Below, in pieces: positions 7,987 to 64,000 of a stretch of 64,000 nt of DNA. The notes under the pieces were generated by a model. The model was not told the origin of the DNA, did no database searches, and saw only the letters and a program-made list of their open reading frames with translations. The position numbers and the translations under genes were made by a program. This DNA comes from an uncultured Candidatus Saccharibacteria bacterium. GTDB lineage: Bacteria; Patescibacteriota; Minisyncoccia; Phycocordibacterales; WO2-35-19. Each line of letters opens with the position of its first letter. Position 1 is the stretch's first letter. The stretch is taken from assembly GCA_964534305.1 (NCBI GenBank), contig CAZHPR010000001.1, positions 26,944-90,943 on the forward strand. The letters are read 5' to 3'.

Positions 7987-8679
7987 GGCGGCGATGGCGG
8001 CGGTTTCGGCGCGCAAAACAAGAGAACCCAGAGAATACACTTGGGCTTCTTTTTGTTTAAATAGATCTAACTCCTTTGGAGACCAGCCACCTTCAGGCCC
8101 GATGAATAAGTTTACAGACTCCAGATTATAGTTTTCAGTTCCCCTCTTCTTTGCAAGGAGAGGGGTTAGGGGTGAGGTAGAAGAAGGCTCCAATATAATC
8201 ACCCCTCCTTCTGTTTCCTCAATACTATCTGCTAACTGCTTAATGCTATTTATCTCCGGTACATCAGCTCTGCCGCACTGCTCGCTTGCCTCTATCGCAA
8301 TCCTCTTTGCTCTTTCAAGGTTAAAACCTTTTTTCTCACTTCTTTCTGAAAGGATTGGAATTATTTTTGAGACCCCAAGTTCTGTCGCCTTTTCTATCAC
8401 CAGCTCAAGGTTATCTTTTTTTATCAAAGAAATATAAAGACTAATTTTATTTTTAGGGACCACTCCCCCTCTCTCTTCTAAGAGTCTCACCCAAGCTTCT
8501 CGATTGTTTATTGTTTCTATAACGTATAGGTATTCGCTCCCCCTACCGTCAAAGAGGACAACCTCGCTCCCAACATTGTATCTAAAGACACTTCTCCACT
8601 GGTGCATCAAATCTCTATCCTGCAACAGGGTCCTATCGCTACCTAAATCCTTTTTTATATAAAACCTATGTAGTCGCAT
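7966..8679 (-). CDS. rsmE: 16S rRNA (uracil1498-N3)-methyltransferase RsmE carrying a 15-aa in-frame repeat-element insertion
   Basis: RsmE family motifs (…LFIGPEGGWSPKE…, N-terminal PUA-like domain). The STSPLTPLLAKKRGT segment is encoded by the palindromic element at 8139-8183. Confidence 0.8.
   Translation of the reverse strand: MRLHRFYIKKDLGSDRTLLQDRDLMHQWRSVFRYNVGSEVVLFDGRGSEYLYVIETINNREAWVRLLEERGGVVPKNKISLYISLIKKDNLELVIEKATELGVSKIIPILSERSEKKGFNLERAKRIAIEASEQCGRADVPEINSIKQLADSIEETEGGVIILEPSSTSPLTPLLAKKRGTENYNLESVNLFIGPEGGWSPKELDLFKQKEAQVYSLGSLVLRAETAAIAALSLLVL
8139..8183. repeat. G+C-rich palindromic element (solo copy) inserted in frame within rsmE
   Basis: GTTCCCCTCTTCTTTGCAAGGAGAGGGGTTAGGGGTGAGGTAGAA. 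The same 45-bp unit is also at 11931-11975. Confidence 0.85.
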
Positions 8680-9543: not shown

Positions 9544-11073
9544 ATGTCATTAAAAATAGTAATACTTCTAGCTGGATTCTCGGCTCTGATCGGGATCGCT
9601 TTTGGGTATTTCCTTAGATGGATAATATCCTTAGGCCAGAGAGGTTCGGTTGAGCTTCGAATAAAGCAGATGGAACTCCATGCAAGAGAGGAGGCAAAGA
9701 AGATAGTTGAAGAGGCTGAGACAAAAGCAGAAGAAACCCAAAAAGAGATCCGGGCGGAAATAAAAGAAAAGGAAGATAAGTTCAAAAAGACTGAAGATAG
9801 GCTTATCAAGAAAGAAGAGTTTTTGGACAAGAGACAGGTAGATATAGATAAGGAAATAGAACAAATAAAAGAAAAGGTTGCTGAAGTAAAGGCAATCAGA
9901 GAAAAGGCAGAGCAAATAGAAAAACAAAAGTACGAAGAACTACAAAAGGTTGCAAATATGTCTGAGGAGGACGCCAAGAGAGAACTCTTAAATCTTGTAG
10001 AGAGAAGATCTGAAGAAGATTTTATGGTTAGGATGCAAAAATTAGAGCAACAAGGCACAGAGAAGATGGAAAAGAGGGCCAAAGAAATACTCACAACCTC
10101 TATACACAGACTAGCAAATGCTGTTTCCTCTGATGTGTTTTCTACCAGCGTAGAGATACCGTCAGATGAGATAAAGGGCAAAATAATCGGAAAAGAAGGT
10201 AGGAATATAAAAGCCTTTGAGAGAGCGAGCGGAGTTGAGGTTATTGTAGATGATACCCCAGGACTTATAACCATATCTTCTTATGACCCAGTAAGGAGGC
10301 AGGTTGCCAGAATGGCCCTCGAAAACCTTATCTCTGATGGAAGGATCCAACCTGCAAAGATAGAAGAGATGGTTGAAAAAGCAAAGCAGGATATAAACAA
10401 AATAATAAAAGAGAAGGGTGAACAAGCGGCATATGAATGTGGAGTTTTCAATTTAGACCCTAGAATCTTGGCGATTCTCGGCAGACTACACTTCCGTACT
10501 TCTTATGGCCAAAATGTGCTCCAACACTCAATTGAGATGTCGCACGTGGCAGGAATGATCGCTGAGGAGATCGGAGCTAATGTACCTATCGCAAAGGCAG
10601 GGGCCCTACTCCATGACATAGGCAAGGCAGTCGATCACGAAATCGCCGGCACTCACGTAGAGATCGGTAGAAGGATCTTGCAAAAATTTGGAGCGGATCC
10701 ACTCATCATAAAAGCAATGGAAGCTCATCACGGTGAATATCCTTATGAGACTCTGGAGTCTTATATTGTCCAAGCAGCCGATGCAATCTCTGGTGCAAGA
10801 CCGGGAGCAAGAAGAGACAGTGTAGAAAATTATTTGAAACGTCTCGGCGAGCTAGAAACAATTGCAACTTCCTTCAAGGGAGTAGACAAGGCTTATGCTC
10901 TACAGGCCGGCAGAGAAGTAAGAGTATTTGTAACCCCATCTGAAGTTACCGACCTCGAAGCAAGGAACATCGCTCGCGACATTGCAACAAGAATAGAAAA
11001 CGAACTCAAATACCCAGGAGAAATCAAAGTCCTCGTCATCCGCGAGTCTAGAAATATCGAATTTGCAAGATAG
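9544..11073 (+). CDS. rny: Ribonuclease Y
   Basis: N-terminal TM segment, coiled coil, KH domain (IGKEGRNIKAFE) and HD domain (LLHDIGKAVDHE). Confidence 0.9.
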   Translation: MSLKIVILLAGFSALIGIAFGYFLRWIISLGQRGSVELRIKQMELHAREEAKKIVEEAETKAEETQKEIRAEIKEKEDKFKKTEDRLIKKEEFLDKRQVDIDKEIEQIKEKVAEVKAIREKAEQIEKQKYEELQKVANMSEEDAKRELLNLVERRSEEDFMVRMQKLEQQGTEKMEKRAKEILTTSIHRLANAVSSDVFSTSVEIPSDEIKGKIIGKEGRNIKAFERASGVEVIVDDTPGLITISSYDPVRRQVARMALENLISDGRIQPAKIEEMVEKAKQDINKIIKEKGEQAAYECGVFNLDPRILAILGRLHFRTSYGQNVLQHSIEMSHVAGMIAEEIGANVPIAKAGALLHDIGKAVDHEIAGTHVEIGRRILQKFGADPLIIKAMEAHHGEYPYETLESYIVQAADAISGARPGARRDSVENYLKRLGELETIATSFKGVDKAYALQAGREVRVFVTPSEVTDLEARNIARDIATRIENELKYPGEIKVLVIRESRNIEFAR

Positions 11074-11109
11074 GATAAAGTGTTGTAGTATCCAACCGGA
11101 GGTTATTCC

Positions 11110-11634
11110 GTGACTAGTGAAGAACGATGTTCCATTTTGGAAGATGCCTACGAGGTGTTTTTCAAGGCAATGATGTCTGGATATGCTGGAAACAGCAATC
11201 GGGCAGTCAAAACAACAACAAACAATGGATGCACCAAAAAGGTGGAATACACCGAGGGTGATTACACCGTCACTGACACTTGGCACACACACCCAGAATC
11301 AGACAAATCGTCTGGGTCAACCCTGATCATCTTCCAAGGTAAGCCAGTTTGGTGGGTGTCATACTTTGGGAGCTACCCAAAGGAAGTGATTCCATTCCTG
11401 AAAGAGACTCTCAGGGAAACATACGGAAAAAACAATTTCATCGGCGGGCGTGGACCGACAGATTTTGTCAAAGATCAGTACTGGTACAAAAACTGTCCGA
11501 GACTATCACCGGGCGGCGATTTTACTGAATTCTGTGATTTCGCTGGTTCGGAAGCGATTTACAGAAACACAAACTTTGAAGGTCCCGGCGAGATGATTGG
11601 TTACCATCATTATCATGGTCATTCTATGATCTGA
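11110..11634 (+). CDS. Hypothetical protein in a G+C-rich island (GTG start, His-rich C-terminus HHYHGHSMI)
   Basis: GGAGG Shine-Dalgarno-like motif 7 nt upstream of the GTG. Codon and G+C usage differ from the surrounding genes. No confident family assignment. Confidence 0.4.
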   Translation: MTSEERCSILEDAYEVFFKAMMSGYAGNSNRAVKTTTNNGCTKKVEYTEGDYTVTDTWHTHPESDKSSGSTLIIFQGKPVWWVSYFGSYPKEVIPFLKETLRETYGKNNFIGGRGPTDFVKDQYWYKNCPRLSPGGDFTEFCDFAGSEAIYRNTNFEGPGEMIGYHHYHGHSMI

Positions 11635-11660
11635 CCACCATCACCGGACACACAATACCT

Positions 11661-11693
11661 AGGCGCGACCGCAGGTCGCGCCTTTGCTTTTTC
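11661..11693 (+). terminator. Rho-independent terminator
   Basis: GGCGCGACCgcaGGTCGCGCC followed by TTTGCTTTTT. Confidence 0.7.
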
Positions 11694-11739
11694 ATACAGA
11701 ACCCCCCCTTAACAAATCTAAAAGTAACCCGTTTTTCTT

Positions 11740-11779
11740 CCCTCCCCTGATCAAGGGGAGGGTTGGGTGGGGTTATTCC
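11740..11779. repeat. Palindromic element variant (solo copy) directly after the stop codon of the MBL ribonuclease gene
   Basis: CCCTCCCCTGATCAAGGGGAGGGTTGGGTGGGGTTATTCC. The hairpin loop resembles the 17609 element and the tail resembles the main family. Confidence 0.7.
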
Positions 11780-11788
11780 AAGATGGGG

Positions 11789-13237
11789 TTAATCCAAAAA
11801 GTATTCCTTACCGGGTTCGGGATAAATTGCTTCTATATCTAAGTACTCACGGATGCGTTGAGAGAGAAAGAGCGAAGAACGCGGTTCACCCATGATAGTA
11901 AAAACTTTTTTGAGAGAGTGTTGTTGTGTGGTTCCCCTCTCCTTTGCAAGGAGAGGGGTTAGGGGTGAGGTAGAACCTTCCGAAGCCTCCTCGACAAACT
12001 CCACCAAATTATCAGAATCTTTGTGTGAAGAGTAACCCTTTATTGTCTCTATCTTTGCTCTTACTTTTATTTTTTGACCATTTATCTTGACCTCACTCTT
12101 GCCGTCCTCAAGAGCCCGGCCCAAGCTACCCAGAGTTTGATACCCAACAAGGAGGAGGGTGTTTTTGTGATCGTCCAAAATATCAGCTTCATGAGCCAAA
12201 ACCCTCCCCCCTTCAGACATACCAGAGCCAGCAATTATTATCTTCGGGCCACCTTTTTTTATAACAGACTTACTTTCTTCAAAACCGTCTACAATATTGA
12301 GGCCAGGAAAATCAAATATGTTATCGCCCCTTTTTATCTCTTCTTGTACTTCCTTTTTAAAATCAGTTGCGTATTTTTTATAGATGTTTGTTACTTTTAT
12401 AGCCAGTGGAGAATCAAGATAGACAGGGACTTTCTCTATCTCCCCATCTTCTATCATGTTGTTTAGTTCGTACAGCATTACCTGAGTCCTTTCTATAGAA
12501 AAAGCTGGTATAACAATGGTTCCACCCCTCTTTATCCCCTCTTGGATCACCCCCTTAAACCTCTCTCTTCTTTCTTCTTTACTCTCATGATTTCTATCTC
12601 CATAAACACTCTCCATAACAATATAATTTGCTCCTTCTGGAATTTCTGTATCCGGTAATAATGGCGAAGGAGAATTGCCCAAATCTCCTGTAAAGGAAAT
12701 CTTGCGTACTTCATTCAAATCGAAAGATCCATAAGAAATATTTATTATGGCAGAACCGAGTATATGGCCAGCATTTTGCATATCTATCTTTATATCTTTA
12801 CCTAGGTTTATTGTTTGATTGTAATCGCAACCCTCCCACAAAGACATCGTTTTTTCTATATCCTTCTCTTCATAGAGATTTTTGTCGCGATGCCTAGACC
12901 TAAAAACTTTAAGAGCATCTAGGAGCATTGGCCTTGCAAGCTCCAGGGTTTCCTTTGTTGAAATTATTTTTCCACCAAAGCCCTCTCTCACAAGCTTTGG
13001 TATTTTGCCAATATGATCCATATGAGCATGAGTCACCAGTAGAAAATCAAAAGAAGACGGGTCGTATTTGAATGGCTCAAAGTTTTTTAGTTCATCATTG
13101 AAACTACCCTGGAGCAGACCACAATCAACCATAATCTTTGTACCAGCATAAAGAAATTCTATGTTTGCACCGGTTGCGGTCCCTACCCCACCCCAAAAAA
13201 TTAGTTTTGCATTTTTATCTTTATTTTGTTGACTCAT
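11789..13237 (-). CDS. MBL-fold beta-CASP ribonuclease (RNase J / CPSF-like) carrying a 15-aa in-frame repeat-element insertion
   Basis: HxHxDH motif (VTHAHMDHIG) and a beta-CASP-like central region. The C-terminal segment STSPLTPLLAKERGT is encoded by the element at 11931-11975. Confidence 0.7.
   Translation of the reverse strand: MSQQNKDKNAKLIFWGGVGTATGANIEFLYAGTKIMVDCGLLQGSFNDELKNFEPFKYDPSSFDFLLVTHAHMDHIGKIPKLVREGFGGKIISTKETLELARPMLLDALKVFRSRHRDKNLYEEKDIEKTMSLWEGCDYNQTINLGKDIKIDMQNAGHILGSAIINISYGSFDLNEVRKISFTGDLGNSPSPLLPDTEIPEGANYIVMESVYGDRNHESKEERRERFKGVIQEGIKRGGTIVIPAFSIERTQVMLYELNNMIEDGEIEKVPVYLDSPLAIKVTNIYKKYATDFKKEVQEEIKRGDNIFDFPGLNIVDGFEESKSVIKKGGPKIIIAGSGMSEGGRVLAHEADILDDHKNTLLLVGYQTLGSLGRALEDGKSEVKINGQKIKVRAKIETIKGYSSHKDSDNLVEFVEEASEGSTSPLTPLLAKERGTTQQHSLKKVFTIMGEPRSSLFLSQRIREYLDIEAIYPEPGKEYFLD
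11931..11975. repeat. G+C-rich palindromic element (solo copy) inserted in frame within the MBL ribonuclease gene
   Basis: GTTCCCCTCTCCTTTGCAAGGAGAGGGGTTAGGGGTGAGGTAGAA. Confidence 0.85.
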
Positions 13238-17150: not shown

Positions 17151-17199
17151 TGGGCTAAATATAGCATTATTATTTTATTTATAAACCCCCTCCGGCTTA

Positions 17200-17635
17200 A
17201 AGCCACCTCCCCCTTAATCAGGGGGAGGAAACACCCCACCCATCACAAATTATTTCTTATTTTTAAAATTACTTCCTCCACCCCATTATCAATCTCTTTA
17301 TTCCAAAACCTTAAAGTCTTATACCCCAAGTCTTCCATAAACAACTGTCTTACCCTGTCATACTCTTTATTTTGATTGTGAATTTCTCCGTCAATTTCGA
17401 TAACTAATTTTTTCTCTGGACAAAAGAAATCAACTACATAACCTCCAATACTATGCTGTCTCCTAAATTTCACCCCCAACTGACTACGTCTCAAATACCA
17501 CCAAATTTTATTCTCTTGCGGAGTTGGGTTTCTTCTAAGTTCCTTTCTATGCTCCCGGAGGCTGTATAGATTATGCAACTTCTTCATAACGATAAGTAGC
17601 AGTTTTTTCTTTCCCCTGATTAAGGGGAAAGTGGC
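17200..17635. mobile_element. Small cassette of one DUF559 endonuclease gene flanked by about 30-bp inverted repeats, inserted between adk and map
   Basis: Left arm AAGCCACCTCCCCCTTAATCAGGGGGAGGAAA (17200-17231). Right arm TTTCTTTCCCCTGATTAAGGGGAAAGTGGCC (17605-17635) is its imperfect reverse complement. Confidence 0.55.
17243..17587 (-). CDS. DUF559 (Vsr-like, PD-(D/E)xK) endonuclease-domain protein
   Basis: …ENKIWWYLRRSQLGVKFRRQHSIGGYVVDFFCPEKKLVIEIDG…LRFWN… The ORF-track start at 17638 reads through the right inverted repeat. The Met at 17587 is the more likely start. Confidence 0.8.
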   Translation of the reverse strand: MKKLHNLYSLREHRKELRRNPTPQENKIWWYLRRSQLGVKFRRQHSIGGYVVDFFCPEKKLVIEIDGEIHNQNKEYDRVRQLFMEDLGYKTLRFWNKEIDNGVEEVILKIRNNL

Positions 17636-17652
17636 CAAAGGCCGATAGGGGT

Positions 17653-18243
17653 TTACAGGTTTATTTTTTCTAATATCTCCCTATGCACATCTTCTATTGG
17701 TTGTTCACCATTTATTTCTACAAATTTGTAGTAAGGATTTGATTTAAAATGTTCTAGCGCAGGCTTTACACTCTTTTCGTACCATTCCATTCTTCTTTTT
17801 ATCTCTTCTGATTTATCATCCACCCTCCCCCTCTCCTCAAGCCTTTCAGTTGCCCATTCTGGGGAAACAAGAATTGAGATTATAGTAGGATTCTCTCTCT
17901 TATAAAACTGGAGCGCCGTATCCAAGATCCAAGCCTCATGCACCTTCCTTGATATACCATCTATTACCAAATGCTCACTCCCCGTCATATTATCAACAAA
18001 GAATTGTGACCAAAGCCATATCGGAAGAAATTCTGGCATAAGCCCGCCCGAATCAATAACCTCCTTGGTTTTCTTTGCAGAAAAAGAATCCTGTTTTGCA
18101 AATTCTCGTAGTTTGCCTCCAGTTTCTAGGTACAAAACTTTCTTTTCTGGATCAACTTGCTCTAACTTTTCTATAAGCAATTTTGCCTGTGTACCCTTAC
18201 CAGAACCAGAAGGACCAAAAAATATAAATGTTTGAGGATTCAT
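17653..18243 (-). CDS. adk: Adenylate kinase
   Basis: P-loop GPSGSGKGTQ. Confidence 0.9.
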   Translation of the reverse strand: MNPQTFIFFGPSGSGKGTQAKLLIEKLEQVDPEKKVLYLETGGKLREFAKQDSFSAKKTKEVIDSGGLMPEFLPIWLWSQFFVDNMTGSEHLVIDGISRKVHEAWILDTALQFYKRENPTIISILVSPEWATERLEERGRVDDKSEEIKRRMEWYEKSVKPALEHFKSNPYYKFVEINGEQPIEDVHREILEKINL

Positions 18244-43090: not shown

Positions 43091-43140
43091 CCTCCCCTCT
43101 CCTCTTGCAAGGAGAGGGGTTGGGGGTGAGGTAGATTATT
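43091..43140. repeat. Palindromic element (solo copy) abutting or overlapping the fusA stop codon
   Basis: CCTCCCCTCTCCTCTTGCAAGGAGAGGGGTTGGGGGTGAGGTAGATTATT. Confidence 0.8.
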
Positions 43141-45904: not shown

Positions 45905-45950
45905 TTCCTCCCCTCTCTTAGATTAAGAGAGGGTTAGGGTGAGTTATTTT
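45905..45950. repeat. Palindromic element (solo copy) filling the rpsL-rpsG intergenic spacer
   Basis: CCTCCCCTCTCTTAGATTAAGAGAGGGTTAGGGTGAGTTATTTTTA. Confidence 0.8.
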
Positions 45951-47383: not shown

Positions 47384-47428
47384 CCCCCTCTCTTAATTTA
47401 AGAGAGGGGTTAGGGGTGAGTTATTTTT
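47384..47428. repeat. Palindromic element (solo copy) that encodes the last 5 codons and the stop codon of the ComEC MBL-domain gene
   Basis: CCCCCTCTCTTAATTTAAGAGAGGGGTTAGGGGTGAGTTATTTTT. Confidence 0.85.
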
Positions 47429-54020: not shown

Positions 54021-54983
54021 TTAATCTAACGCTTCGATTCCAGGGAGGGTCCCATTGGCAAGGAAGTCGAGCATGGCGCCGCCAGCAGTCGAGACGAAGG
54101 TAAATTTGTCTTCTATATTAAGTTCTTTGATAGCCGAGAGAGTATCTCCACCGCCCACTATCACCTCCACTTTTTCATGTAATTCTGCTAGTCCTTGGGC
54201 AAGGGCTTTGGTCCCCTCAGTATATCCATTTTCATAATTACCCAAAGGGCCGTTCCACAAAACAAATTTAGAGACTCTCGCCTTTTCTAAAATAAGATCA
54301 ACAGTTGGCAAATCGGCATCGAGAGCTGAGTAATCACAGAGAGGAAAAAATATTTTAGGATTGGAAGAAAGTTTGGGGTCTTTCGAAGCCGGTAGAGCAA
54401 GAGTGCCCCCAACAAACACTACATCCGCAATATCTAAAAACTTTTCTAAAAGTGGAATCTTGGTCTCAAGTTTTGCACCACCAAGTATAAACAGAAATGG
54501 GTGGAGCGGATTAAAGGCTTTTGAAAGATTCTCTACTTCTTTCATAAAATTTATTCCTGCATACTTTTCACTCATAAAATTTGGTACTCCCACTACTGAA
54601 GCATGGCTTCGGTGAGAAACCGAAAACGCTTCATTAACATAAATCTCCCCCTGAGCAGCGAGCTCTTTTGCAAAACTTTCATCGTTTTCTTCTTCTCTAC
54701 TATCTATTCTTAGATTTGGCAAAAATTCTACGTGTGTTTTTAAAATAGGAAATTTGTTTTTTGCATATTCAAAAACCGGATCCATAGATTCTCCTGCCCT
54801 ACCAAAATGGCTCATCAAAACAACCTTGCCATTATTATCCAGTATATATTTTATTGTTTCTAATGAGGCAAAAATCCTTGAATCATCAGAAACCCTACCG
54901 TTTTTATCTACTGGCACATTCCAATCAACTCGGAGTAATACCCTTTTACCATCAAAATTTTTGACTGAAGTTATTGGCTTCAT
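54021..54983 (-). CDS. pgk: Phosphoglycerate kinase (compact, 320 aa)
   Basis: N-terminal …KRVLLRVDWNVPVD…DDSRI…S…TI… PGK signature. Confidence 0.8.
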   Translation of the reverse strand: MKPITSVKNFDGKRVLLRVDWNVPVDKNGRVSDDSRIFASLETIKYILDNNGKVVLMSHFGRAGESMDPVFEYAKNKFPILKTHVEFLPNLRIDSREEENDESFAKELAAQGEIYVNEAFSVSHRSHASVVGVPNFMSEKYAGINFMKEVENLSKAFNPLHPFLFILGGAKLETKIPLLEKFLDIADVVFVGGTLALPASKDPKLSSNPKIFFPLCDYSALDADLPTVDLILEKARVSKFVLWNGPLGNYENGYTEGTKALAQGLAELHEKVEVIVGGGDTLSAIKELNIEDKFTFVSTAGGAMLDFLANGTLPGIEALD

Positions 54984-55063
54984 ACTTTATATTTTAGCAG
55001 ATTAATAACTCACCCCCTATCCCCCTCTCTTACAACAAGAGAGGGGGGACCAAAAAATACAAT

Positions 55064-55624
55064 CTATTTCTGATTAAAATACTCTGGAATCTCATTTGCT
55101 TTAATAATAATCCTGTTTGGGAACATATTTCGTAGCTCATCCACCAAGGGATAAAATTTTGTGTTAACCACTAAAGATCCTACATTAATTTTAAACAAAC
55201 CTGTTTCGTCTGGTCTTTGTGGTTTTCCACCTGGAAATGGGTTGTCTTTTTCTAAAACAACTAAAAAATTACACTGGGTCATAAATCCTCCAAACATACC
55301 GCCTAATTTTCCAACGTCTCCTTTTATTCCACCATTTGAAAGAATGTTCAGAGCTGCTGTTACCCATTCAAGGTCTCTACCCCTAGTAATTCCGTGTGCC
55401 AAATAATTATTTAAAACTTCTGTTGGTATATCTCTCAGATAATAGTCAATGGCATTTTGATACCTTTCGGTTGCAAAAGGAGGATTCCATCCGTTTACAT
55501 CTTGATTAGCTTGAGCTGTTATTTCGGCATCGTATTTTTCAAGTAGCTCCTGAGCCACTTTCTCAGATTCCCCAAAAGGGACGAATTCTTGTTTTGGTTG
55601 TGGGTTTTGTGGTTGATTTTCCAT
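55064..55624 (-). CDS. Hypothetical protein (cargo gene of the cassette)
   Basis: ORF only. Gly-rich central segment. No family assignment. Confidence 0.4.
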   Translation of the reverse strand: MENQPQNPQPKQEFVPFGESEKVAQELLEKYDAEITAQANQDVNGWNPPFATERYQNAIDYYLRDIPTEVLNNYLAHGITRGRDLEWVTAALNILSNGGIKGDVGKLGGMFGGFMTQCNFLVVLEKDNPFPGGKPQRPDETGLFKINVGSLVVNTKFYPLVDELRNMFPNRIIIKANEIPEYFNQK

Positions 55625-55647
55625 ATTATCCAGGCCGCTAATTATTC

Positions 55648-55998
55648 TTATAATTTTAATTCTGTACTTCTTCTGATATTTTCTAAAACTTTATCCAAGT
55701 TGTTTAAAATATCATTATTCCAAAATCTTATAGTTCTTATATCTTTATCTTTTAAAAAGTCCTCGCGTTCTTGGTCGTATTCTACAGCACTTTTATGTTG
55801 TTCACCATCTAGTTCTATCGCAAGTCTTTTTTCTGCACAAAAGAAATCTAGTATATACGGGCCTGCACTATATTGTCTTAAAAATTTTAAATTGTTTACT
55901 TGTCTGTTCCTAATTTTTGACCAAAGGAGTCTTTCTGCTTCAGTTTGATTTGACCTGAGTTCACGTCGTCGCTCTAGTTGGTTTTGGTCGTTATACAT
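55648..55998 (-). CDS. DUF559 (Vsr-like) endonuclease-domain protein
   Basis: …EAERLLWSKIRNRQVNNLKFLRQYSAGPYILDFFCAEKRLAIELDGEQH…IRFWNN… Start set at the ATG at 55998; the ORF-track TTG start reads into the repeat. Confidence 0.85.
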   Translation of the reverse strand: MYNDQNQLERRRELRSNQTEAERLLWSKIRNRQVNNLKFLRQYSAGPYILDFFCAEKRLAIELDGEQHKSAVEYDQEREDFLKDKDIRTIRFWNNDILNNLDKVLENIRRSTELKL

Positions 55999-56171
55999 AT
56001 TTGTATGATTCCGGTTTCCCCCTTGTTGTAAGGGGTGAGAATGCGCAGTATTCGCAAGACTTTTTGAGATATTTTTATGCAATTAAAATATCCAAAAAGT
56101 GTACAGTCCTTGTAAGGGATTAGGGGGGTTATTCCCCCTATCTTGTTGTAAGAGAGGGGTTAGGGGGTGAG

Positions 56172-56939
56172 TTATTTTACATCCACACTTTTCAAAATTT
56201 CTGGAAACTCTTCTTTTTTTAGTGAAGCATGACCAACAAGAAATCCTTCTACATTACCGTAGTCTATTATGGCTCTAGCATTCGGGGCCTCAACAGCAGC
56301 TCCATAGAGGATACGCACAGAAGAAGCAATATCTTTACCAAACAATTCACCCAAAGATTTTCTGATAAAAAGGACTGTCTCGTGTATATCAGTTGGACTC
56401 ATTGCTTCTCTATAAGATTTTCCTATCGTCCAGACCGGCTCATAGGCGATAATAAGTCCCAACATATATTTCTTTTGTAAGCCGGAGATAGAATTTTTAA
56501 GTTGTTCTTTTAAGAACTCGAGATGACTTCCTTCTCTATCTCTAACACTTTCCCCGATACACAGGATTGGAGTAAGACCAGCTTCAAACACTGACTCTAA
56601 TTTTTTGTTTATTATTTTATTATCCTCACCCATTGCCCTCCTCTCAGAGTGCCCGACCAAAACAAACCTAACTCCCAAATCTTTGAGCATTTGATTGCTC
56701 ACTTCCCCAGTAAAGGCGCCCTTTTCTTCAAAATACGAGTTTTGTGCTGTAATAAATAGATTTTTAGGTCTGCTTATTTTTGACAACAGCCCAAGATACA
56801 CAAAAGGAGGAGCGACCAAAACCTCTGTATTTTTGAGTACTGAGGCGGTCTTTTTTGTAAAATTAAATATACTTTTTGCTTCTTCAAGAGAACTCGGGTT
56901 CATCTTCCAATTTGCTATAACTATATTTTTCTTTTTCAT
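56172..56939 (-). CDS. tpiA: Triosephosphate isomerase
   Basis: …IANWKMN… and …VGHSERR… motifs. Its stop codon lies inside the right inverted repeat. Confidence 0.9.
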   Translation of the reverse strand: MKKKNIVIANWKMNPSSLEEAKSIFNFTKKTASVLKNTEVLVAPPFVYLGLLSKISRPKNLFITAQNSYFEEKGAFTGEVSNQMLKDLGVRFVLVGHSERRAMGEDNKIINKKLESVFEAGLTPILCIGESVRDREGSHLEFLKEQLKNSISGLQKKYMLGLIIAYEPVWTIGKSYREAMSPTDIHETVLFIRKSLGELFGKDIASSVRILYGAAVEAPNARAIIDYGNVEGFLVGHASLKKEEFPEILKSVDVK

Positions 56940-60908: not shown

Positions 60909-62117
60909 TTATTTTATGGCATCAACAAGCGAGTATGTTGGCAAAAGCATTGCAATTGCAAAGAGACCCACTGCGATACCTATAAATATCATAAGTATTG
61001 GTTCTATTATGGTAGAAAGATCCTTGGTCTTTTGATCAACCTCCGCTTCATAAAAATCGGCTATATTGTCTAGCATATCTGTCACCTTTCCGGTCTCCTC
61101 ACCAACTGCAAGCATCTCACTCACAAATATTGGGTATAGATTAAAGGGTTTGGATAAACACTCAGAAAGTAATTCTCCTGTTTGAACTCTTTTGGTAGCT
61201 CCTTGAATAATTGCCTTAAAATAATGGTTTCTTAGAACTCCAGCGGTTATATCAAGGGCTGAAACTATATCCACCCCAGACGATATAAGAGAAGATAGGG
61301 TACGAGATGTTCTAGCAGCGTTGACTTCTCTAGTCATCGTACCAATAACTGGCAGATGAAGAAAAACAAAATCAGCAATATTCTTACCTCTCTTGGTTTT
61401 TAAGAAACTTGTGACACCAAATATAACCGCGACCGCAACCCCGAAGTTTATAAGCAAATTGTTTCTAATAAAATCACTTATCGCAATAATTATCCTTGTT
61501 GGTAAGGGCAGGTTTATATTCAGTCCTCTAAAAGTTTCGGTGAGAGTCGGCACCATATAAATCATAAGCAGGATACCCATTACAATCATAAGACTGATTA
61601 TTATGGAGGGATACATCATTGCCCCCTTTATTTTTTTGGTCAATTGACTTGATTTTTCTAGCTGACTTGCTACAACTCGCAACGAAAAAGAAAGCTTACC
61701 AGATTCTTCGCCTGCCTTAACCATCGAAACAAATATATCAGAGAAAATATCTTTATAGCTCTCCATTGCCTTGGATAGAGTATCTCCTTTGTTTATAGAA
61801 TCATAAAGCCCTTGGAGGACCGAAACAAATTTTTTATTCTTTGACTGTTTCTGCATGATGCTTATCGCCCTTGAAACAGAGAGACCAGCATCTATCATAA
61901 CCGCCAAATTTTTGGCAAAAGATATCACTTCTTGCGCCTTAACCCTTTTTAGAAAAGAGAAATTTAGAGATATTTTTCTACCAGAAACCTCTTCAACCGA
62001 GACAACGGTTGCCAGGTTTTTGCGCACCGCAAGGTAAAGCTCCTGTTTATTCTCAAATTCTCTTGTCTCTTCGTATTCTTTACCGTCCTTTATTGCTTTA
62101 TATTTGTACAACGACAT
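60909..62117 (-). CDS. pilC: Type IV pilus assembly platform protein PilC (GspF family)
   Basis: Two T2SS-F repeats and three TM helices. Confidence 0.85.
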   Translation of the reverse strand: MSLYKYKAIKDGKEYEETREFENKQELYLAVRKNLATVVSVEEVSGRKISLNFSFLKRVKAQEVISFAKNLAVMIDAGLSVSRAISIMQKQSKNKKFVSVLQGLYDSINKGDTLSKAMESYKDIFSDIFVSMVKAGEESGKLSFSLRVVASQLEKSSQLTKKIKGAMMYPSIIISLMIVMGILLMIYMVPTLTETFRGLNINLPLPTRIIIAISDFIRNNLLINFGVAVAVIFGVTSFLKTKRGKNIADFVFLHLPVIGTMTREVNAARTSRTLSSLISSGVDIVSALDITAGVLRNHYFKAIIQGATKRVQTGELLSECLSKPFNLYPIFVSEMLAVGEETGKVTDMLDNIADFYEAEVDQKTKDLSTIIEPILMIFIGIAVGLFAIAMLLPTYSLVDAIK

Positions 62118-62235
62118 AAATAGAAAATTAATTTTCTATTTAATTATATCAGTATAAAAAAATTTTTTTATAGAATATGTAAATAACTCACCCCCTGCCC
62201 CCTCTCTTACAACAAGAGAGGGGGTAAGAAAAAAA

Positions 62236-62610
62236 TTACTCAGGTCTGCAATATATCTCTAATCTAATATCACTCGGATCATCAAACCAGATAAATTCTT
62301 TATCACCATACTTATCAATTTTGATTCCGCTGTTTTTTATACCTACTTTATTTAAAACTCTCTCGAGTTCTCTTAATTCCTCTCCTGTTTTTACTCCAAA
62401 AGCCAAATGGTTCAAACTGGTTTTGTCTTTATCTGATTTTTCGTATTCTCCATAAGGCAGACCAAAAAATATTTTGGTTTCTCCAATTTTGTAAGCAACC
62501 TGATTTTTATCTTGATAGTCTGGTTTACCAAGAAAAGAAGAATAGAATTTTTCTGTCTTCTCAATGTTCTTAACTATCAAAACTATGTGGTCTATATATT
62601 TAGGGTGCAT
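62236..62610 (-). CDS. VOC-family (glyoxalase/bleomycin-resistance/dioxygenase) protein
   Basis: …IDHIVLIVKNIEKTEKFY… N-terminal beta-alpha-beta-beta-beta module. Confidence 0.7.
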   Translation of the reverse strand: MHPKYIDHIVLIVKNIEKTEKFYSSFLGKPDYQDKNQVAYKIGETKIFFGLPYGEYEKSDKDKTSLNHLAFGVKTGEELRELERVLNKVGIKNSGIKIDKYGDKEFIWFDDPSDIRLEIYCRPE

Positions 62611-62614
62611 ATTT

Positions 62615-62968
62615 TTATAGTTTATTTTTTAAAGAATTTTCTATTATAACTTTCAAAACTCCTTCAATATCTTTTACTACTTCATTATTCCAAAATCTTA
62701 TAGTTCTTATATCTTTATCTTTTAAAAAGTCCTCGCGTTCTTGGTCGTATTCTACAGCACTTTTATGTTGTTCACCATCTAGTTCTATCGCAAGTCTTTT
62801 TTCTGCACAAAAGAAATCTAGTATATACGGGCCTGCACTATATTGTCTTAAAAATTTTAAATTGTTTACTTGTCTGTTCCTAATTTTTGACCAAAGGAGT
62901 CTTTCTGCTTCAGTTTGATTTGACCTGAGTTCACGTCGTCGCTCTAGTTGGTTTTGGTCGTTATACAT
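62615..62968 (-). CDS. DUF559 (Vsr-like) endonuclease-domain protein, second near-identical copy
   Basis: Identical to the 55648 copy except for the C-terminal 20-25 residues. Confidence 0.85.
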   Translation of the reverse strand: MYNDQNQLERRRELRSNQTEAERLLWSKIRNRQVNNLKFLRQYSAGPYILDFFCAEKRLAIELDGEQHKSAVEYDQEREDFLKDKDIRTIRFWNNEVVKDIEGVLKVIIENSLKNKL

Positions 62969-63141
62969 ATTTGTATGATTCCGGTTTCCCCCTTGTTGTA
63001 AGGGGTGAGAATGCGCAGTATTCGCAAGACTTTTTGAGATATTTTTATGCAATTAAAATATCCAAAAAGTGTACAGTCCTTGTAAGGGATTAGGGGGGTT
63101 ATTCCCCCTATCTTGTTGTAAGAGAGGGGTTAGGGGGTGAG

Positions 63142-64000
63142 TTATTCCGAAACCACCCTGAGCACTTCCTCAATTGTTGTCAATCCTTGAGCAGCCTTGA
63201 AGATACCATCTTCCATCATGGTGAGCATCCCCTCTTTTTTTGCTTGCAGTTCTATATCTTCAGTTGTTCCGCCTTTGATAATTATATCCTTGATCGCACT
63301 TGAAACGTTGAGCACCTCATAGATACCAACTCTACCCTTAAAACCCTCCTCACCCACATCTTTGTTTGGTTTGTAAAAAGGTACGTTTTTCCATTCGTCT
63401 TTATTTCCTATTATTTTCTCTTCTTTCAAAGCCTTGAGTACTCTGTCCATATCAATAACCTTTGCAATGGAATCAACCTCGGCTTGAGTAAGGTAGTGTT
63501 TCTCACCTCGATCTACCAACTTTCTTACCAATCTCTGACCGATAACAACATCAAGAGTTGAGATCATGAGAAATGGCTCTACCTTCATATCTATAAGTCT
63601 AGGCACAGCACCAGCCGCTGAGTTGGTGTGTAAAGTAGAGAGAACCAGGTGTCCAGTAAGAGAAGCGTTGATAGCAAGAGAGGCGGTCTCATTGTCTCTA
63701 ATCTCTCCAACCATTATGATATCCGGGTCCTGTCTCACAAGAGTACGGAGTCCGGCTGCAAAGGTAAGACCTATTTCAGGCTTAACCTGAGTCTGATTAA
63801 CTCTTTTCATCTGGTATTCAATCGGATCTTCAATAGTAGAAATATTTACGTCTGGAACATTTAAGATATCAAGCATTGTATAGAGGGTGGTGGACTTTCC
63901 GCTTCCAGTAGGACCAGTTGTAAGTACCATACCGGTTGTGTGCTGCAAAGCCTTGTGCAAAACATCAAGACCTTCTCCATGAAAACCAAGGGCTTCTAGA
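63142..64000 (-). CDS. pilB: Type IV pilus assembly ATPase PilB/GspE, C-terminal ATPase domain; the gene continues beyond the window end
   Basis: Walker A GPTGSGKSTT, Asp box, Walker B and His box of GspE-family ATPases. Its stop codon lies inside the right inverted repeat of the cassette. Confidence 0.8.
   Translation of the reverse strand, partial: LEALGFHGEGLDVLHKALQHTTGMVLTTGPTGSGKSTTLYTMLDILNVPDVNISTIEDPIEYQMKRVNQTQVKPEIGLTFAAGLRTLVRQDPDIIMVGEIRDNETASLAINASLTGHLVLSTLHTNSAAGAVPRLIDMKVEPFLMISTLDVVIGQRLVRKLVDRGEKHYLTQAEVDSIAKVIDMDRVLKALKEEKIIGNKDEWKNVPFYKPNKDVGEEGFKGRVGIYEVLNVSSAIKDIIIKGGTTEDIELQAKKEGMLTMMEDGIFKAAQGLTTIEEVLRVVSE

Follow-up and report, generated by a model that had tools for sequence, protein, structure and literature searches.

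Small insertion cassettes with a DUF559 nuclease gene and inverted BoxC/PIT-type repeats in a Patescibacteria genome, and a possible role for YcjD-like proteins in repeat movement

A 64,000-nt stretch of contig CAZHPR010000001.1 from an uncultured Candidatus Saccharibacteria bacterium (GenBank assembly GCA_964534305.1; positions 26944 to 90943), referred to here as the window, contains two short units, unit 1 (55004–56176) and unit 2 (62182–63146), in each of which a gene encoding a DUF559 protein and one further gene are enclosed by an inverted repeat. The locus raises the question of whether such units move between sites and strains and, if they do, whether the small nuclease-like protein that they encode is responsible. 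The units can be described with high confidence as small Patescibacteria insertion cassettes, composed of a DUF559 gene with or without one passenger gene and enclosed by two inverted repeats of the BoxC/PIT type. That DUF559 is the agent by which cassettes and repeats move is proposed more tentatively, as a possibility a little short of an even call.

Both units are enclosed by a repeat of 43–44 nt, consistent with the pair of about 45 bp that the original prediction had placed around a 1.17-kb unit at the unit 1 position. The predicted recurrence of the same architecture with a different cargo was also borne out, as unit 2 has a VOC gene where unit 1 has an open reading frame (ORF) for a 186-aa protein (coordinates of all arms and genes are in Table 1). 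Every gene in this region lies on the minus strand, with unit 1 located between tpiA (56172–56939) and pgk (54021–54983), and unit 2 between pilB (T2SSE; from 63142) and pilC (T2SSF; 60909–62117). Aligned by sequence, the repeat arms agree at 41 of 44 aligned positions with one 1-nt indel, and a 27-nt core was found four times in the window and in none of 100 shuffles. Each arm is predicted to form a hairpin of 11 bp, CCCCCTCTCTT-ACAAC-AAGAGAGGGGG, with DNA folding z-scores of -2.7 to -6.6. In the sense direction the upstream repeat of unit 1 reads AATAACTCACCCCC-TAA-CCCCTCTCTT-ACAAC-AAGATAGGGG, where TAA is the tpiA stop codon, and the TAA stop of each upstream host gene (tpiA, pilB and, for a third DUF559 unit in the window, adk) is furnished by the outer end of the unit.

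A block of 465 nt is 100% identical between the two units (55712–56176 and 63146–62682). Its start coincides exactly with the upstream repeat's outer end and it runs to approximately codon 94 within the DUF559 gene; past this block the DUF559 C-termini and the cargo are unrelated; the cassettes exchange sequence with one another. Long DUF559 ORFs with a TTG start (144–145 aa) read through the repeats, but the ATG codons at 55998 and 62968 are taken as the true starts because homologues begin there. The cassettes follow immediately on the stop codon of a gene in an operon and are oriented in sense with it, and as no promoter-like or terminator-like site was found on the sense strand between host gene and DUF559, the cassettes are probably co-transcribed with the host operon.

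The positions occupied by the units were examined in close relatives. In L001 and L002, which share 97–98% nucleotide identity with the window, unit 1 is present and the gap between pilB and pilC is a 72-nt spacer only. In L123, L124/L125 and L127/L128, where pilC is 84% identical, the whole order S15-NYN-pilB-pilC-...-tpiA-pgk-HIT-recJ is kept, tpiA and pgk are 9 nt apart or overlapping, and units 1 and 2 are absent with no triplex motif of the kind found in the repeats (see below) at either junction. The third unit is absent from L131 (adk 98% identical), where the gap between adk and map is 15 nt, and this site is likewise empty in L132 and L133. As the units are missing from syntenic relatives, every DUF559 gene of the window is presence/absence polymorphic among close relatives, and the mobility that had been proposed holds for all three DUF559 units in a population-genetic sense. 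The empty sites are without any repeat, indicating that the repeats arrive together with the gene, and homing of DUF559 into existing repeat doublets was ruled out for all three events.

The original prediction had called for alignment of filled and empty alleles to define the ends and any target-site duplication. The ends do coincide with the outer ends of the repeats, but no target-site duplication was found at the filled versus empty junctions of the cassettes, and a TA or other duplication was ruled out as the flanking AATAA/TTATT is inverted and not direct. Two empty sites each hold a single copy of the cassette-terminal 8-mer AATAACTC, exactly at the position where the cassette end falls. 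The tpiA-pgk site of L123 reads GTAAAATAACTCATCAAT and includes AATAACTC in forward orientation (GTAAAATAACTCATCAATATG), and the pilB-pilC site of L001 reads GTAGAGTTATTTAC and includes it in reverse orientation (GAGTAGAGTTATTTACAT). Outside the repeats, this 8-mer occurs only twice on both strands of the 64-kb window. Its presence in the empty sites could reflect target preference, microhomology-mediated joining or the footprint of an earlier occupancy, and is suggestive only, because the Lys-stop codons force part of the match in tpiA. Simple core-site recombination of a circular intermediate seems to disagree with the filled and empty alleles, among which the junctions that it predicts were not observed.

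Mismatches between filled and empty alleles are clustered upstream of the insertions. In pilB, 11 of the 24 mismatches, all 11 of them synonymous, fall in the last ~56 nt before the insertion, and in adk 9 of 12 fall in the last 60 nt; the downstream side of the insertions is free of such a cluster, as is tpiA, which is followed by the unit in both genomes compared. Flank co-conversion by a diverged donor would leave upstream clusters of this kind. In addition, pgk differs from its counterpart in L001 (coordinates 11016 to 11981) at 61 of 966 positions, compared with 8 of 765 in tpiA and a region that is ~98% identical, and this divergence suggests a recombination tract bordering the unit 1 cassette.

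Tracts of this kind would also arise if the unit were a mini-island spread by DNA uptake and homologous recombination in the flanks, with DUF559 as a restriction-like, defence or addiction gene and the hairpins as stabilisers or insulators at the RNA level. The diverged, purely synonymous pilB tract beside the insertion is in keeping with this, as are the filled pilB-pilC site in another species, the invariable placement in sense behind a stop codon, without any promoter-like or terminator-like site detected ahead of DUF559, and weak domain-level PADLOC matches to restriction-type nucleases. However, the identical 465-nt blocks at two non-homologous loci, together with a metagenomic element found in three contexts (see below), need movement without flank homology. 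The unit includes no methyltransferase or other defence partner and PADLOC matched no system, and an RNA role would not need inverted ends that include a non-pairing tail. Spread as a mini-island is therefore clearly improbable.

BoxC/PIT/TMECO repeats have been known in Escherichia coli since the 1990s and are present in hundreds of genomes, those of cyanobacteria among them, though their origin and spread are unexplained. The cassette repeats of the window follow the same plan: a loop separates the pyrimidine arm from the purine arm, and beyond a second, short loop comes a G-rich tail in mirror image to the purine arm. When the purine arm AAGAGAGGGGG is set against the tail GGGGGTGAGTT, 11 of 11 positions can be read as allowed triplets (G.G, A.A or T.A). 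A scanner coded for the BoxC/PIT/TMECO triplex rule was applied to the window, to shuffles and to metagenome loci, and identified none in the shuffles. Of the 10 motifs that it identified in the window, four are the cassette ends and the others lie at 8141, 11740, 11934, 43094, 45911 and 47385. A further scan result was 70 motifs, doublets included, in 253 kb of Patescibacteria loci. By architecture, the repeats thus belong to the BoxC/PIT/TM class and have the potential to form an intrastrand triplex. Triplex formation by TMECO repeats has been seen in vitro on single strands and not in vivo (Holder et al., PMC4666352).

Features shared with the described members of this class are the C-rich arm, loop, G-rich arm, 2–3-nt loop (often TTA) and mirror-image G-rich third strand, as well as the G/C-rich, intergenic and dispersed nature of the repeats, their frequent occurrence as inverted pairs and the variation of their loci between strains (PMC4666352; the architecture is described further in PMC2267715). 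The focal repeat differs in having A/G-mixed arms of 10–11 nt (AAGAGAGGGG) and an AT-rich outer end (GTTATT), and in bounding a protein-coding cassette, a link to a nuclease or to mobility being unreported for BoxC/PIT. The focal arms CCCCTCTCTT/AAGAGAGGGG do not fit the exact TMECO consensus, CCCTCNCCC N3-6 GGGNGAGGG N3 GGGNGAGGG. Repeats flanking DUF559 in other loci, for example L117, and the repeat neighbouring E. coli ycjD do fit it, and several DUF559-flanking repeats from metagenomes agree exactly with the published pattern GGGNGAGGG-N3-GGGNGAGGG.

When the hairpin core was scanned against 185,579 species genomes, further copies of the repeat, which the original prediction had proposed to seek, were found at 33 loci in ~13 Patescibacteria genomes, including Zambryskibacteria and Paceibacterota. 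The flanks seen in the window are carried by none of these 33 loci. The repeat consists of a conserved outer tail, ATAACTCACCCC, followed by a short linker and the hairpin, and its copies are single, paired head to head between genes, or joined in doublets of 85–100 nt; gene-less doublets with outer ends as in the cassettes are present in L015, L022, L032 and L037. As no DUF559 gene could be detected at ~25 of the 33 repeat-selected loci, the repeat is a dispersed element. The earlier view of the repeats as private transposon ends was abandoned, since they belong to a known class and also occur as gene-less singlets and doublets. Other identities were considered. An intrinsic terminator was ruled out, as the T-run comes before the hairpin instead of after it and the sense strand has no terminator-like site, and a known RNA family was excluded by the lack of any significant Rfam match. 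An integron attC site was also rejected, as every unit carries two copies in inverted orientation and stands singly between housekeeping genes and not in an array (no systematic search for IntI was made); the ATAAC/GTTAT ends recall the AAC/GTT cores only loosely.

The association of DUF559 with such repeats was examined beyond this genome in 80 metagenome loci chosen by DUF559 protein similarity alone (42–78% identity; GC content 32–70%), a repeat-blind choice that was meant to remove ascertainment bias. A triplex motif lay within 200 nt of the DUF559 gene, on one side or the other, in 84% of the 58 loci with both flanks available (upstream 78%, downstream 62%, both sides 55%). The density of motifs was 5.25 per kb near DUF559 and 0.165 per kb elsewhere in the same loci, a 32-fold difference, and a flank inverted-repeat score of at least 16 was obtained for 54% of DUF559 genes, compared with 1.6% of the control ORFs of these loci (p = 1e-16). 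Flanking triplex-motif repeats are a general feature of DUF559 genes, and the bracketing proposed from this single genome extends well outside it. The repeats are REP-like (repetitive extragenic palindromic) and dispersed, as the generic repeats named earlier as a refuting alternative would be, but they are strongly enriched beside DUF559. Arm and tail sequences vary by lineage, yet agree across the two sides of one DUF559 gene. In most metagenome loci the tails face the gene, at times holding its ATG and stop codon; in the family of the window they point outward. Three unrelated contexts, including one flanked by tRNA genes, hold the same metagenomic DUF559 element at ~85–90% identity. The DUF559 genes that are present in the Patescibacteria loci are bracketed by the repeats, for example in L005, L014, L022 and L032, and a decayed 36-aa copy is present in L023. 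No paper tying DUF559 to these repeats was found in a literature search that most subscription journals lay outside, so a prior description is possible.

Repeats that form triplexes or hairpins might themselves be fragile and recombination-prone, giving rise to nearby insertions, deletions and gene conversion, in which case DUF559 would gather beside them as a passenger or as a structure-specific repair nuclease of the host and would move nothing. TMECO loci are indeed more rearranged among E. coli strains, and replication stalling and slippage have been proposed (Holder et al., PMC4666352); most repeat-selected loci are without DUF559, and the junctions show microhomology and not target-site duplication. 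However, fragility leaves unexplained the presence of one gene family within 200 nt of the motifs in 84% of loci of GC content 32–70%, the arrangement of the flanking copies as inverted images, and the empty sites that are free of repeats. Fragility as the primary cause is thus rather unlikely.

The DUF559 protein of unit 1 matches PF04480 at profile positions 3–106 of 109 (115 bits against a cutoff of 20.6), resembles YcjD from end to end (NCBIfam PRK09767, E 3e-27), and has PDB 3HRL, from Neisseria gonorrhoeae, as the closest solved structure (E 5e-29). The profile search of PDB returned 3HRL only, and no similarity to 3r3p or Vsr was detected by it. Residues D51, E62, D64 and H68, which we take to be catalytic, are invariant in eight DUF559 sequences. 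The motif here is E-x-D-G-x-x-H, where EDxHD denotes the Vsr-like homing family, and a single-sequence AlphaFold model (pLDDT 53) was too poor for a fold search. DUF559 is a very large family, comprising 22,805 clusters when grouped at 50% identity. In published work 3r3p, a homing endonuclease structure, is placed in one group with Vsr and DUF559 (PMC3424549), and a role in homing has been described for the wider Vsr/DUF559 group (PMC3424549, PMC9403480). The suggestion that DUF559 is a candidate homing nuclease agrees with a role known for the group; in its classical, site-specific form it is at odds with the occurrence of a near-identical enzyme at two sites.

Free-standing homing endonuclease genes, such as that for the EDxHD enzyme I-Bth0305I (PDB 3r3p), resemble the present units in that a small nuclease gene, assigned to a related fold group in PMC3424549, is wedged between conserved genes, is present or absent between close strains, and is accompanied by co-conversion-like tracts in the host gene. 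They differ in normally having one cognate site and no terminal inverted repeats, whereas here near-identical nucleases occupy different sites and the repeats are dispersed. No intron or intein is present at the units, which do not show residence at a fixed single site.

Insertion sequences (IS), miniature inverted-repeat transposable elements (MITEs) and IS200/IS605 elements also share with the cassettes the terminal inverted repeats or hairpin ends, the several copies, the gene-less derivatives and the insertion polymorphism. However, Pfam searches of units 1 and 2 gave DUF559, VOC or nothing, and no DDE, HUH or serine/tyrosine transposase or TnpB is encoded; together with the lack of a target-site duplication, this sets the cassettes apart from IS elements, and the IS-type or transposon-type mechanism that had been envisaged is not evident. 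The end hairpins of IS200/IS605 are co-oriented, and those at the two ends of a cassette are inverted. A non-autonomous, MITE-like element might instead be moved in trans by a transposase or recombinase encoded elsewhere, with DUF559 and the other gene as its cargo. The outer ends shared by gene-less 85–100-nt doublets (L015, L022, L032 and L037) would fit such an element, and a tyrosine-recombinase gene is found a few kb from pilB in L001 and L127. This recombinase gene is nevertheless also present in relatives without cassettes, no target-site duplication was seen, and DUF559 is the sole gene common to the cassettes and is flanked alike across many phyla. In E. coli, no transposase or integrase lies near the copies, and it was stated explicitly that no mobility function was found beside the repeats (Holder et al., PMC4666352). 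Movement in trans is accordingly very improbable.

In E. coli K-12 (L122, coordinates 1351407 to 1351760 and flanks), ycjD is located between sapF and fabI, and BoxC is said to have been described first beside envM (now fabI). The ycjD stop codon lies in a C/G-rich hairpin, and CCCTCGCCCCTCTGGGGAGAGGGTTAGGGTGAGGGG lies 167 nt downstream. This sequence is number 9 in the TMECO table of Holder et al., where ycjD is named as a neighbour without comment (PMC4666352). The median number of places at which the 56-nt sequence was found is 19 per E. coli genome, and ycjD is present in 3378 of 5426 complete genomes (62%). In an evenly spaced genome sample, and with statistics that ignore phylogeny, BoxC-like places had a median of 21 in ycjD-positive genomes (16–30, n=37) and 6 in ycjD-negative genomes (2–23, n=22; p = 3e-9). 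This correlation is supportive, not decisive, for a role of DUF559 in repeat movement. In the ycjD-negative strain U13A (L136), the slot between fabI and sapF is occupied by the eef efflux operon, and a recent paper infers that ycjD has taken the place of eef at least twice independently (PMC12817139). A partial duplicate of the ycjD 3' end adjoins ycjD in K-12. Elsewhere in E. coli, an unrelated BoxC pair is present at gcvP-ygfF.

If DUF559 does move the cassettes, the nuclease would recognise the structured repeats and nick or cut at or near the conserved tail AATAACTCAC/GTGAGTTATT, and recombinational repair of the break would then copy the repeat-bounded cassette and probably also the gene-less singlets and doublets. 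Where the target is another copy, the outcome would be gene conversion; where it is the corresponding locus in a different strain, it would be homing-like spread accompanied by flank co-conversion. Occasionally, copying could reach new sites that already hold the short match to the tail (the 8-mer). On this view, DUF559 would be to the BoxC-like triplex repeats what RAYT (TnpA-REP) is to REP/REPIN repeats, but on a cassette able to carry cargo. In both cases one small nuclease gene lies between inverted tail-plus-hairpin repeats, and the repeat is dispersed intergenically as singlets and inverted doublets. RAYT is an HUH/Y1 enzyme, whereas DUF559 here is a Vsr-like PD-(D/E)xK protein. RAYTs are usually single-copy and vertically inherited, and in this they differ from the three DUF559 copies found in 64 kb, all insertion-polymorphic and on cassettes that carry cargo. 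By analogy, the system would seem to work most like REP/REPIN-RAYT and free-standing homing genes, while failing a defining feature of each.

A broader proposal, more doubtful than that made for the cassettes, is that YcjD-like DUF559 proteins are the missing mobilising or maintaining enzymes of BoxC/PIT/TM repeats across bacteria, and that in Patescibacteria they form an active cargo-capturing cassette. The DUF559 family, including E. coli YcjD and 3HRL, had no assigned function, and the link to repeats provides a hypothesis that can be tested; two long-standing puzzles, the function of YcjD/DUF559 and the origin of BoxC/PIT, would be joined in one hypothesis accessible in E. coli. If true, it would constitute a second nuclease-repeat partnership beside REP/RAYT, mechanistically different from it, and a new route for small genes into the operons of reduced Patescibacteria genomes.

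Several observations weigh against DUF559 as the moving agent. Cleavage of the repeats by a YcjD-like DUF559 protein is pure inference, and ordinary homologous allele exchange between strains could explain all three polymorphisms without a nuclease. The repeats outnumber DUF559 genes and persist without them, as 6 of the 10 motifs in the window are gene-less and the greater part of the repeat-selected Patescibacteria loci has no detectable DUF559. The DUF559 proteins encoded at tpiA-pgk and pilB-pilC share their first ~94 residues without a difference, unlike what would be expected of a classical, site-specific homing enzyme, and the flanking repeats occur in two opposite configurations, with tails inward or outward. 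The repeats of the third unit fail the triplex rule of the scanner. In E. coli, some ycjD-negative lineages retain 15–23 BoxC copies, including O157:H7, which has 15 places and no ycjD, and ycjD alternates with the eef operon by phylogroup (PMC12817139), so that the BoxC correlation, not being corrected for phylogeny, must be read with this in mind.

The cargo of the cassettes varies by locus, as had been predicted, and was found to be a VOC enzyme in unit 2, the 186-aa protein in unit 1, a HIT protein in L014, a peptidase S51 in L022 and a P-loop kinase in L023, with DUF559 as the only gene common to all cassettes. L014, which is from a different species, has a cassette with another cargo in the pilB-pilC position where unit 2 is inserted. 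The family of the 186-aa protein is rare (13 clusters), and homologues in other places occur on their own, with neither DUF559 nor repeats, ruling out the cargo as an obligate partner of DUF559; the 186-aa gene looks like a captured ordinary gene.

Table 1. Positions in the window of the DUF559 units, their component genes and repeats, and repeats without a gene
Feature	Coordinates	Strand	Details
Unit 1 upstream repeat, tpiA side, type A	56134..56176	-	Triplex motif 56135-56173
Unit 1 DUF559 5' leader	56018..56133	-	Holds second, type-B triplex unit
Unit 1 DUF559 gene, 116 aa	55648..55998	-	YcjD-like PD-(D/E)xK, Vsr-group; Pfam PF04480 E 2e-33
Unit 1 cargo, 186-aa protein	55064..55624	-	ORF without Pfam match
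Unit 1 downstream repeat, pgk side, type A, inverted	55004..55047	+	Repeat and triplex scans
Unit 2 upstream repeat, pilB side	63104..63146	-	Identical to unit 1 upstream copy; supplies pilB stop codon
Unit 2 DUF559 gene, 117 aa	62615..62968	-	C-terminus diverged from unit 1
Unit 2 cargo, 124-aa VOC/glyoxalase-family protein	62236..62610	-	Family match
Unit 2 downstream repeat, pilC side	62182..62224	+	Repeat and triplex scans
Third DUF559 unit, no cargo	17181..17655	-	Between adk and map, in conserved secY-adk-map cluster
Gene-less triplex-motif repeat, same family as units 1 and 2	45911..45946	+	Tail GGGTGAGTTA; directly behind stop codon of upstream gene
Gene-less triplex-motif repeat, same family as units 1 and 2	47385..47423	+	Encodes last codons and stop of ORF 47410-48300
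Gene-less triplex-motif repeat	11740..11774	+	Hairpin CCCTCCCCT-GATCA-AGGGGAGGG resembles those flanking third DUF559 unit
Gene-less triplex-motif repeat, third sub-family	8141..8179	+	Tail GGGGTGAGGTA

The DUF559 gene of the third unit (17243–17587) is 46% identical to that of unit 1, and the inverted repeat that encloses the unit, TAAACCCC...CCCCTTAATCAGGGG, differs from that of units 1 and 2 but again provides the stop codon of the upstream gene, adk. The adk C-terminus is 3 residues shorter in the filled allele. The six gene-less triplex-motif repeats in the window represent at least three sub-families, the third of which has two further copies, at 11934–11972 and 43094–43133; the copy at 11934 falls inside a long ORF (11789–13237).

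The type-B triplex unit in the leader of unit 1 is akin to type A and sits between the upstream repeat and DUF559, with its tail (56108–56133) and hairpin (56018–56035) split by an 83-nt insert. This insert (56036–56118 in unit 1; 63006–63088 in unit 2) is present in the window and in L004 and absent from L001–L003, is flanked by a direct repeat of CCCTTACAA and includes the palindrome GGATATTTTAATTGCATAAAAATATC; it may represent a nested mini-element or have a regulatory function.

Short-read contigs of the source strain (L118 and L119) were found to end inside the 465-nt block common to units 1 and 2, as expected of a repeated sequence; cassettes of this type fragment assemblies and may be undercounted in metagenome-assembled genomes. 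Between pgk and the HIT gene, L124 (coordinates 11320 to 12736) and L125 contain bAvd and reverse-transcriptase genes resembling those of a diversity-generating retroelement, a pair that is absent from the locus in the window. In L022 (coordinates 284 to 1520), the DUF559 unit is followed by a gene-less doublet and then by the peptidase S51 gene with its own terminal repeat, a layout that resembles a chain of cassettes. The repeat-bounded cassette in L023 (coordinates 1762 to 2598), where DUF559 is cut to 36 codons and the P-loop kinase cargo is intact, looks like a decaying copy.

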